A DNA stretch of 64,000 bases from Escherichia coli (GTDB taxonomy: Bacteria > Pseudomonadota > Gammaproteobacteria > Enterobacterales > Enterobacteriaceae), in NCBI RefSeq assembly GCF_030013205.1, contig NZ_CP122648.1; one strand, written 5' to 3'. The translations under genes were made by a program, and so were the position numbers. Under the pieces are notes generated by a model. It did not search any database and was not told where the DNA came from. It saw only the letters and a list, made by a program, of their open reading frames with translations. Positions 53,297 to 54,804 of the stretch are shown one piece after another. Within the stretch, counting starts at the first letter, position 1; each line of letters opens with the position of its first letter.

Positions 53297-54010
53297 ATGG
53301 CTGTTGTCTGTTCAGTTATCATGGTTTGCTCCCCAATTAATATTTTTCTTGAAAAGGATACGTTGTCACTTAAGCCCGGCTCAGTTGTTTTGGCCACCAA
53401 ATGCATCAGGGAGCTTTTCCTTATGCATTATGGCAAAGTTAAAATTGTCGATATAAACCATTCTATAGTAAGTCAATATCTGGAAAGTCAGCATAAGCTG
53501 ACAAGAACTCCTCTGACTGACATTCCGCTTTACTTGTCGCAGGAACCCAACAATCCTGCGTTGGCTGTGGCTTTAATTACCAGCCAGAGACTTTCCGGAG
53601 AGACCACGGACATGTTTCTTATGATGGCCTGCCTGTCGTTGTTTGAATCAGATGAACGGATGTTATTATTTTTAAGTGGATGTTTATCCAGTATAAGTGC
53701 CAAAGTCAGAGCGATAATTCAAACAGATATATCAGCAAGCTGGACGCTTGGTGCGATTGCTCTACAGTTGCATATGAGTGAGAGCTTGTTAAAGAAAAAA
53801 CTCAAGGATGAAGGTCTCAGGTTCAGTAATTTGTTACTTGAGGAACGGATGCGGGTTGCTGTAAATATGTTATGCTCCCGGCATGGATATGGACAGGCTG
53901 TAGCAGAAAAATGCGGTTATTCAAGTAGATCCTACTTTATCTCTGTATTTCACCGCTATTATGGCTTCCCGCCAGACAGATATGTATCTATGCAAGGGCT
54001 TGATTTTTGA
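53297..54010 (+). CDS. AraC-family transcriptional regulator (prophage moron)
   Basis: 237 aa, AT-rich, C-terminal AraC HTH (...GYSSRSYFISVFHRYYGFPPDRY); sits between Q and the lysis genes. Confidence 0.7.
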   Translation: MAVVCSVIMVCSPINIFLEKDTLSLKPGSVVLATKCIRELFLMHYGKVKIVDINHSIVSQYLESQHKLTRTPLTDIPLYLSQEPNNPALAVALITSQRLSGETTDMFLMMACLSLFESDERMLLFLSGCLSSISAKVRAIIQTDISASWTLGAIALQLHMSESLLKKKLKDEGLRFSNLLLEERMRVAVNMLCSRHGYGQAVAEKCGYSSRSYFISVFHRYYGFPPDRYVSMQGLDF

Positions 54011-54036
54011 TTTAATCTGATTATTATTTTCGGCCC

Positions 54037-54112
54037 GGCCCTTTAGCTCAGTGGTGAGAGCGAGCGACTCATAATCGCCAGGTCGCTGGTTCGAATCCAG
54101 CAAGGGCCACCA
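54037..54112 (+). tRNA. tRNA with CAU anticodon (ileX/ileZ-like Ile2 or Met)
   Basis: ggccctttagctcagtggtgagagcgagcgactCATaatcgccaggtcgctggttcgaatccagcaagggccacca. Confidence 0.7.
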
Positions 54113-54113
54113 A

Positions 54114-54190
54114 CCGCCACCAGTTCACCAAGAAAGAGTGTTAACCCTTTAAGTTGAGTGTGCGAGGTTCGAGTCCTCGGTGGCGGTCCA
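54114..54190 (+). tRNA. atypical tRNA-like gene (possible UUU anticodon; D-arm lacks GG)
   Basis: Acceptor ccgccac/gtggcgg, T-arm cgagg-ttcgagt-cctcg, 3' CCA; anticodon loop cctttaa has C at position 33. Confidence 0.4.
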
Positions 54191-54192
54191 GT

Positions 54193-54268
54193 GCCGACTT
54201 AGCTCAGTAGGTAGAGCAACTGACTTGTAATCAGTAGGTCACCAGTTCGATTCCGGTAGTCGGCACCA
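54193..54268 (+). tRNA. tRNA-Thr (UGU)
   Basis: gccgacttagctcagtaggtagagcaactgacttGTaatcagt...ggtagtcggcacca; anticodon loop cuUGUaa. Confidence 0.75.
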
Positions 54269-54271
54269 TAT

Positions 54272-54346
54272 GCGGGTATCGTATAATGGCTATTACCTCA
54301 GCCTTCCAAGCTGATGATGCGGGTTCGATTCCCGCTACCCGCTCCA
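54272..54346 (+). tRNA. tRNA-Gly (UCC)
   Basis: gcgggtatcgtataatggctattacctcagccTTCCaagctga...cccgctacccgctcca. Confidence 0.75.
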
Positions 54347-54608
54347 GCAGTAGACGATACCAGGTTGTTTTGGGCACTGACATATTATATGTGGGATGTT
54401 TTCCTGAATCTTTATCCACATCCTGTTCTGTAATACGTGATATCGGTTACAGTCCAGTGCTGTCTTTTTACAACAGCGTAATGGTGCATTATCGGTGGAG
54501 ATGTTGTATTTCCTGACAGGGCCGGTGATGCATCATTCCGATGTTGTTAACATCTATAAAAAACGTTGAGATTAATCACGTATTAAGCAAAACCTGGAAA
54601 TTCATCTT

Positions 54609-54635
54609 AACCGCCGTACCAGGCGGTTTTTTTTA
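54609..54635 (+). terminator. rho-independent terminator in the tRNA-to-lysis spacer
   Basis: ccgccgtaccaggcgg followed by TTTTTTTT; a second hairpin gggccgctggtggccc plus T-run lies at ~54762-54786. Confidence 0.55.
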
Positions 54636-54804
54636 TTCAGTTTCTTCATGGCTCGCTACTGCGGGCCTTTTTCATTTCTTCGCCCTGCTCAGCGTATGTC
54701 AAATCTGAATACACCACACAAAAGGTATCTGCGGGTGCCTTTGACGGGGTGTTGTTTTTTACGGGCCGCTGGTGGCCCTTTTTTATTTACAGGAGAAAAA
54801 AAGT

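Follow-up and report, generated by a model that had tools for sequence, protein, structure and literature searches.

Between the antiterminator gene Q and the lysis genes of a lambdoid prophage, the 64,000-nucleotide stretch of Escherichia coli DNA analysed here (the window; contig NZ_CP122648.1 of assembly GCF_030013205.1) carries an intact gene for a transcriptional regulator of the AraC/XylS type, followed by four tRNA-shaped genes (54037-54346) that are separated from each other by 1, 2 and 3 nt (Table 1). An earlier note, made from the sequence alone, had described this content and called the position the one in which Shiga toxin (Stx) phages carry their toxin genes. Both descriptions hold: the regulator and the four tRNA-like genes are present between Q and the first holin gene, and phage phiSTEC1575-Stx2k (OQ243220) has stx2k in the same Q-to-holin slot. 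We consider it likely that this is a cargo (moron) segment of a defective lambdoid prophage located at serU, which combines a Psr-family regulator expressed in the lysogen with a common tRNA cassette whose lysine-type gene is decaying.

Table 1 Features of the Q-to-holin segment and its borders in the window
Feature	Position	Strand	Basis
Antiterminator Q	52103-52771	+	Pfam PF06323 Phage_antiter_Q, E 2.2e-91; phrog_304, E 4e-108; NCBI annotation
Putative pR'-like late promoter, TTGCAA-17 nt-TATATT	52776-52804	+	5 nt past Q stop; consensus scan 9/12
Putative tR'-like intrinsic terminator, stem CCCGC/GCGGG and 7 T	~52851-52886	+	Read off the sequence; ~50 nt after pR'-like site
TrmB-like small regulator remnant (pseudogene)	53017-53180	+	NCBI "frameshifted"; translation stops after 34 codons
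Putative regulator promoter, perfect -10 TATAAT	53234-53261	+	36 nt before ATG; consensus scan 10/12
Psr-type AraC/XylS regulator, 237 aa, intact	53297-54010	+	Pfam; phrog_1450, E 5e-93; alignments
Putative promoter ahead of tRNA cassette, TTGATT-16 nt-TATTAT	54000-54027	+	Overlaps 3' end of regulator ORF; consensus scan 9/12
tRNA-Ile2, anticodon CAT, ileZ type; predicted to decode AUA once modified with lysidine	54037-54112	+	ARAGORN; Rfam 72.6 bits; NCBI tRNA-Ile
Probably decayed tRNA-Lys(UUU)-like gene, argN slot	54114-54190	+	Rfam 29.3 bits when searched alone; relaxed ARAGORN tRNA-Lys(ttt)
tRNA-Thr(UGU)	54193-54268	+	ARAGORN; Rfam 73.8 bits; 76/76 identical to K-12 thrU
tRNA-Gly(UCC), glyT type	54272-54346	+	ARAGORN; Rfam 65.6 bits; 73/75 identical to K-12 glyT
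Terminator-like hairpin 1, run of 8 T	54609-54636	+	Consensus scan
Terminator-like hairpin 2	54650-54677	+	Consensus scan
Terminator-like hairpin 3	54763-54788	+	Consensus scan; ends 17 nt ahead of holin start
Lysis cassette	54805-55842	+	NCBI annotation
Holin	54805-55197	+	phrog_198
Holin	55187-55462	+	phrog_217
M15 endolysin	55465-55842	+	phrog_465
aa, amino acids; ORF, open reading frame.

The late region and the prophage around it

Q is followed by promoter-like and terminator-like sites at most 115 nt past its stop codon and by lysis genes on the same strand, which is the layout of a lambdoid late operon. The tR'-like terminator would stop the pR' transcript at ~75 nt; the terminator scan scored this hairpin on the minus strand only, as its stem extension uses up the T run. 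The first ~125 nt past Q co-occur with Q in ~90-106 related loci. The hairpin had been taken in the earlier note for the regulator's own upstream terminator, but it belongs to the Q/pR' module, lies 410 nt upstream of the regulator gene and is separated from it by the TrmB-like pseudogene. The TrmB-like ORF is intact (73 aa) in phiSTEC1575-Stx2k and frameshifted in the O157:H7 copies; the TrmB-like gene always precedes the regulator gene.

The inserted genes appear to have the features of a moron: promoter-like sites ahead of the regulator and of the tRNAs, three terminator-like hairpins past the cassette, and a lower GC content, which is ~0.42 in the regulator gene compared with 0.50-0.58 in the flanks, in agreement with its previous description as AT-rich. 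The moron concept reportedly goes back to Hendrix and Juhala, and stx, bor/lom, nmpC and csp genes are said to occupy the same Q-lysis slot. As in other lambdoid morons, extra genes with a promoter-like site, terminators and lower GC stand between genes of the late operon, and we see no essential difference. The promoter-like site of the regulator is kept in four loci (the window, the Stx2k phage and both copies in strain EDL933 described below), and the stretch 54000-54027 is nearly identical in the Stx2k phage. Ten terminator-like sites were found in the whole region, compared with 2.7 ± 2.0 in shuffled sequences.

Three terminator-like hairpins, not the two noted before, lie in the 458-nt spacer between the tRNA cassette and the holin gene; the hairpins proper span 54609-54628, 54650-54667 and 54763-54778. 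BLAST similarity of this spacer is limited to spacers and holin leaders of the phages SerU-LTIIb, phiP27 and Stx2k: positions 54374-54804 are 81.5% identical to SerU-LTIIb (KU052038.1), and the last ~100 nt ahead of the holin are 90% identical to the Stx2e phage phiP27. The spacer was also searched for an stx remnant or a small RNA, which returned only weak chance matches in Rfam. Phage SerU-LTIIb shares the attachment site of the window prophage; it carries LT-IIb enterotoxin genes after the endolysin gene and Thr-Gly tRNAs before the holins.

According to the NCBI annotation of an identical genome, the lambdoid prophage adjoins the tRNA-Ser gene serU (38909-38998), and the integrase gene next to it is frameshifted. 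An IS1 element in the early region splits the DUF1482 gene, and at its right end the prophage breaks off directly after the large terminase gene (terL) into chromosomal zinT. Since the integrase is frameshifted, the early region is interrupted by IS1 and nothing follows terL, we conclude that the prophage is a defective remnant. The early region of this prophage, which spans 38909-59000 of the window, is Rac/Qin-like, with dicB, ydfB, ydfC and YdaT, and an HNH endonuclease gene and a P27-type small terminase gene precede the large terminase gene. No Pch/PerC gene and no effector gene or locus was seen in the NCBI annotation of the remnant.

The 2 kb from 52780 to 54810 are 100% identical to many chromosomes of porcine enterotoxigenic or Shiga toxin-producing E. 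coli (ETEC/STEC), including K_EC180, O139:H1 W13-16 and UMNF18. At least 80% of the 2 kb is found in one piece in only 32 of 5426 complete E. coli genomes.

The AraC/XylS regulator

The regulator ORF has the full length of its family: homologs of 237 aa match it from one end to the other, and the alignment to the YdeO model covers residues 1-229. It is therefore not the broken fragment of a longer gene that had been named as a possibility. Pfam finds HTH_18 at residues 155-229 (E 3.6e-10) and HTH_AraC at residues 141-170 and 202-224, that is, the C-terminal domain of ~100 aa with two helix-turn-helix (HTH) motifs that defines AraC/XylS proteins. The closest solved structures are the DNA-binding domain of GadX (3mkl, E 1.3e-19) and then Rns. 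The best curated NCBIfam models are YdeO (109.9 bits, cut-off 348) and GadX (91.1 bits, cut-off 500); because these scores are far under the curated cut-offs, the sequence places the regulator as a relative of the YdeO and GadX equivalogs and a member of neither.

PatE (z0321, OI-8), AppY, YdeO, GadX and GadW form a branch of AraC/XylS proteins that converges on gadE and the acid fitness island (PMC10057817), and the window regulator stands on the same branch. The earlier suggestion of a PatE/GadX-type protein was thus right as to the type (GadX, YdeO, PatE) but not as to the nearest relative, as identity to PatE is only 38%. PatE also differs in position, being encoded at a prophage end next to tail-fibre/pin genes and not in the Q-lysis slot. 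The same presumably applies to appY, which we take to lie at the end of DLP12.

The closest phage homolog (95% aa identity) is encoded in phiSTEC1575-Stx2k, and two further homologs, each 92% identical over 237 aa without gaps, are encoded in the resequenced genome of the enterohaemorrhagic E. coli (EHEC) O157:H7 strain EDL933. One of the latter genes lies in the CP-933M region (11009-11722 of fetched locus L010) and the other in the OI-57 prophage; their products are 91% identical to each other. Both genes follow Q, stand directly before a tRNA-Ile gene and have a PerC/Pch gene nearby. The gene annotated upstream of the OI-57 copy encodes a DUF1133 protein, and a TrmB-like pseudogene is annotated between Q and the CP-933M copy. 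Two copies per genome are typical of O157:H7. Altogether, the regulator gene was found in 809 of the 5426 complete E. coli genomes, mostly with ~92.6% nucleotide identity.

Reviews (PMC10877973, PMC8565820) describe PsrA and PsrB as prophage-borne, AraC-like proteins that are 90% identical and associated with Pch, with PsrB (z2104) encoded in OI-57. There, PsrA and PsrB are stated to raise expression of gadE and yhiF, to bind the gadE and hdeA promoters, to increase acid resistance and to repress type III secretion indirectly, and these phenotypes were seen in cultures of uninduced lysogens. Since the window regulator is 92% identical to both EDL933 proteins, and these match the published data in their mutual identity, the OI-57 location and the Pch neighbours, we assign it on sequence grounds to the Psr family.

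Compared with PsrA/PsrB of EHEC O157:H7 (Tree et al. 2011, Yang et al. 2015), the window protein is an AraC/XylS regulator of the same length, encoded at the same lambdoid site, past Q and a TrmB-like ORF and directly before a tRNA cluster led by tRNA-Ile2, with an upstream promoter-like site common to both. The differences are these: the window host is of the porcine ETEC/STEC type and not EHEC, the tRNA cassette is Ile-Lys-Thr-Gly instead of Ile-Arg-Arg, a Pch/PerC gene or effector locus was not seen in the prophage remnant, and the proteins differ in 8% of their residues, some of which lie within the first HTH motif.

In phiSTEC1575-Stx2k the gene order is Q, small ORFs, TrmB, regulator, tRNA-Ile2, argN, argO, stx2kA, stx2kB and, further on, the lysis set. 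The succession of Q, TrmB, regulator and tRNA-Ile2 and the type of the lysis genes (holin, holin, M15 endolysin) are the same as in the window. In contrast, argN, argO and stx2k follow tRNA-Ile2 in this complete phage, whereas the defective window prophage has the Lys-like, Thr and Gly tRNA genes and no toxin genes. The regulator is a regular neighbour of stx and not a substitute for it, and a functional phage has the psr module directly upstream of stx2k.

This family of regulators is already in the literature, as are its place in prophages and its effect on acid resistance, and hundreds of genomes have the tRNA cassette annotated. The region thus matters little as a discovery and is useful as annotation: the "helix-turn-helix domain-containing protein" of porcine ETEC/STEC could be named a regulator of the Psr type, with a probable role in increasing acid resistance.

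The tRNA cassette and its second element

Default ARAGORN and an Rfam scan of 2.2 kb identified three of the four tRNAs, namely tRNA-Ile2, tRNA-Thr and tRNA-Gly. The two differences between tRNA-Gly and glyT amount to one compensated acceptor pair. The element at 54114-54190 was missed by both programs and by the NCBI annotation of the 100%-identical genomes; in an isolated search of 89 nt it scored 29.3 bits against an Rfam gathering score of 29, and is thus tRNA-like but borderline. Of the four tRNA-like genes counted in the earlier note, three are therefore canonical, and the second is non-canonical, as had been stated; its identity, which the note had left open, can be settled by homology.

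The element folds into a cloverleaf with stems of 7/4/5/5 pairs, without non-standard pairs, and has a 7-nt anticodon loop, an encoded CCA and a T loop that reads TTCGAGT. Nothing is lost from the acceptor stem, the T arm or CCA, and the anticodon loop reads CCUUUAA. However, the conserved nucleotides U8, G18, G19 and U33 are lacking: C stands at position 8 and at position 33, and A has taken the places of G18 and G19 (the D loop is ACCAAGAAA). Minimum free energy folding was uninformative for this element, as the genuine thrU tRNA too failed to give a cloverleaf.

Base by base, the element aligns with argN of the Stx2k phage, which occupies the same slot, and it is 88-92% identical to tRNA-Lys genes annotated by NCBI in Ile-Lys-Thr-Gly cassettes of other lambdoid prophages. 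The lineage as a whole (Lys-type and argN-type) is present in 1783 of the 5426 complete genomes, and a prophage tRNA-Lys(UUU) on an argN body in roughly a fifth of them. C33 and the loop CCUUUAA are common to all Lys-type variants, whereas the losses of U8 and G18/G19 are limited to the window allele and a few others. From the commonest variant the window allele differs at 7 of 77 positions, which include U8C, G18A and another D-loop change; of the remaining differences, three are C-to-U exchanges by which G-C pairs become G-U pairs, and a single one repairs the T stem. In a small sample of seven variants, 96.6% of the cloverleaf positions were paired, and in four pairs both partners had changed.

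Rfam scores of the commonest Lys-like variant (44.4 bits) and of argN from the Stx2k phage (45.5 bits) are also low, compared with 70-72 bits for the neighbours of argN, and the whole argN lineage is therefore one of atypical tRNAs. The argN gene of the Stx2k phage (6826-6902 of fetched locus L002) has an A:G mismatch in its T stem. In EDL933, the argN slot of OI-57 (34098-34178 of fetched locus L011, between tRNA-Ile and tRNA-Arg) is unannotated and badly scrambled; although it is more decayed than the window element, its acceptor stem and CCA are retained, as is a T-like hairpin. The acceptor/T minihelix pattern of both elements hints at retention for precursor processing.

Compared with the ileZ-argN-argO cluster of Stx and other lambdoid phages, the window has the same slot, the same ileZ-type first gene and a second element homologous to argN. 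The anticodon loop, however, is CCUUUAA (Lys) in the window and CUUCGAA or CUUCUAA (Arg) in argN, and copies of host thrU and glyT stand where argO is found in the cluster. A literature search on ileZ, argN and argO yielded nothing useful. We conclude that the second element is probably a decaying allele of a real but unusual prophage tRNA-Lys(UUU), from which probably no functional tRNA is made. This accounts for the 80 nt left without annotation inside the group of tRNA genes.

The regulator gene and the cassette are not bound to each other. The modules assort INDEPENDENTLY, with psr upstream in only 8 of 120 IMG/VR loci that have this tRNA cassette, and homology breaks after tR', after the regulator and after the cassette. 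The composition Ile-Lys-Thr-Gly was found in 98 of 124 fetched loci that hold the anticodon/T-arm sequence of the second element. In the window, psr stands with Ile-Lys-Thr-Gly, whereas its partner in EHEC and the Stx2k phage is Ile-Arg-Arg; the order Q, TrmB, psr, tRNAs is common to the Stx2k phage and the O157 prophages. We conclude that the region is a mosaic of three independently assorting modules: Q with pR' and tR', the TrmB remnant with psr, and the tRNA cassette.

Expression of the segment and use of its tRNAs

Most likely, the regulator would be transcribed from its own promoter in the lysogen and, as its relatives do, would bind AT-rich sites at the gadE and hdeA promoters and raise glutamate-dependent acid resistance; in strains that carry the enterocyte effacement locus (LEE), its relatives in addition reduce type III secretion by way of GadE and YhiF. 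The second promoter may serve the tRNAs, and the three terminators past the cassette would keep lysogen-time transcription out of the lysis genes, whereas Q-modified RNA polymerase from the late promoter would read through all of them. Own promoter and terminators with Q read-through are the standard moron arrangement. As usually read, such a cassette would supply extra decoding capacity for A-ending codons.

Several points weigh against parts of this reading. Promoters and terminators were called solely by their match to a consensus. The EDL933 copies were named PsrA/PsrB by the OI-57 location and the 91% mutual identity, and the z1789/z2104 records had no part in this. The OI-50 prophage of resequenced EDL933 (NZ_CP008957 1626000-1675000, fetched locus L009, on the potC side, with espK, espN and nleL) has no psr-like gene between Q and the lysis genes, whereas the literature places psrA (z1789) on OI-50. 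Furthermore, every stem of the window Lys-like element is paired, the T stem more completely than in the commonest variant, so that a dead pseudogene is not proven. Finally, codon counts for early, late, regulator and host genes, which are small numbers, gave no clear support for supplementation, with neither AUA nor ACA enriched in what remains of the late genes. The regulator gene is mildly enriched in AUA, GGA and AGA, again in small numbers.

The little support that codon usage gives to supplementation is one argument for reading the cassette instead as a counter-defence device. According to a published hypothesis, phage tRNAs stand in for host tRNAs that defence nucleases have cut (PMC10264068). 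The prime targets of AriB are the Lys(UUU) and Thr(UGU) tRNAs, with the site U36-A-A-U-C-A41 cut before A41, and the exchange U39A alone abolishes cleavage (PMC12409363). These two targets are exactly two of the four species of the cassette. The Lys-like tRNA is built on the body of an Arg tRNA; it has C33 beside the PrrC cut site, and G39-U40-U41 where the AriB site has U39-C40-A41, and a tRNA with these nucleotides would probably escape AriB. It is conceivable, though unlikely, that the prophage tRNA-Lys(UUU) on an argN body serves in this way as a lysine tRNA in reserve, out of reach of the nucleases directed at host tRNA-Lys. In addition, in 5 of the 120 loci the thrU body is switched to the anticodon UUU.

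On the other hand, the prophage tRNA-Thr does not differ from host thrU; it has the AriB site and would be cut just as the host tRNA is. Positions 39-41 of the Lys-like tRNA follow from its argN ancestry and so are no evidence of selection for resistance, and tRNA-Ile2 and tRNA-Gly are not known targets. We therefore give the counter-defence role of the cassette only a small chance of being correct. If it is, lambdoid phages would carry the Lys-like tRNA and an extra thrU to pass abortive infection of the PARIS or PrrC type, the change of the thrU body to the anticodon UUU would be a second route to the same end, and the decayed copy in the window would be a relic of this device; lysine anticodons on non-Lys bodies could then link the tRNAs of temperate phages to tRNA-targeting defence. 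The thrU-type tRNA with anticodon TTT instead of TGT also has the change A26G and stands in slot 3 (IMG/VR loci L119, L121, L126, L020 and one more); these five loci may be closely related prophages, and the change could be a single event.

For the regulator, the alternative is that it is expressed mainly in Q-dependent late transcription and switches host regulons (GAD and others) at induction, a coupling that the earlier note had proposed. On one strand with its gene, Q and the pR'-like and tR'-like sites lie upstream and the lysis genes downstream; the window prophage has an intact Q and pR', and in the Stx2k phage the regulator gene is directly upstream of stx2k. Stx2 production depends on late transcription. 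The coupling is thus physically possible, but it is doubtful in this prophage, because the regulator has its own conserved promoter-like site and terminators downstream, because the published Psr phenotypes (PMC10877973, PMC8565820) come from uninduced cultures, and because the prophage is defective, with its early region disrupted by IS1. Moreover, a cell that expresses Q also makes holins and endolysin, which would leave little time for a regulon switch to matter. Mainly Q-dependent expression thus seems improbable to us, and transcription from the regulator's own promoter in the lysogen is the better reading.

About as improbable is that the second element functions in this strain as a non-canonical tRNA-Lys. 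Its full cloverleaf of correct length, its T loop, its encoded CCA and a score just at the Rfam gathering threshold would fit a functional molecule. However, the lost U8, G18 and G19 are among the most conserved nucleotides of tRNA tertiary structure, C stands in place of U33, the score falls 15 bits short of that of the commonest variant, and the standard pipelines do not call the gene.

More doubtful still is that the element is kept as a processing signal, its minihelix with CCA serving as an RNase P site that splits tRNA-Ile2 from tRNA-Thr. An acceptor/T minihelix suffices for RNase P, the spacers on the two sides are of 1 and 2 nt only, and the acceptor stem, T arm and CCA are perfect despite the loss of U8 and G18/G19, as the same parts are kept in the more scrambled OI-57 slot. 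But these are two examples only, early decay would give the same pattern by chance, and the neighbours could mature without the element, by RNase P at the 5' end of tRNA-Thr and exonuclease trimming. A decaying allele of a prophage tRNA-Lys(UUU) therefore remains our preferred description. A selenocysteine-type or long-arm tRNA, raised by a 9-bp complementarity of the ends, was rejected in view of the standard 7/4/5/5 cloverleaf and the homology to argN.

Elsewhere in the window, four genes for tRNA-Asn(GTT) were found (11250-11325, 13658-13733, 15482-15557 and 37842-37917), the fourth of which is preceded by a frameshifted gene for a protein with Ig-like domains.

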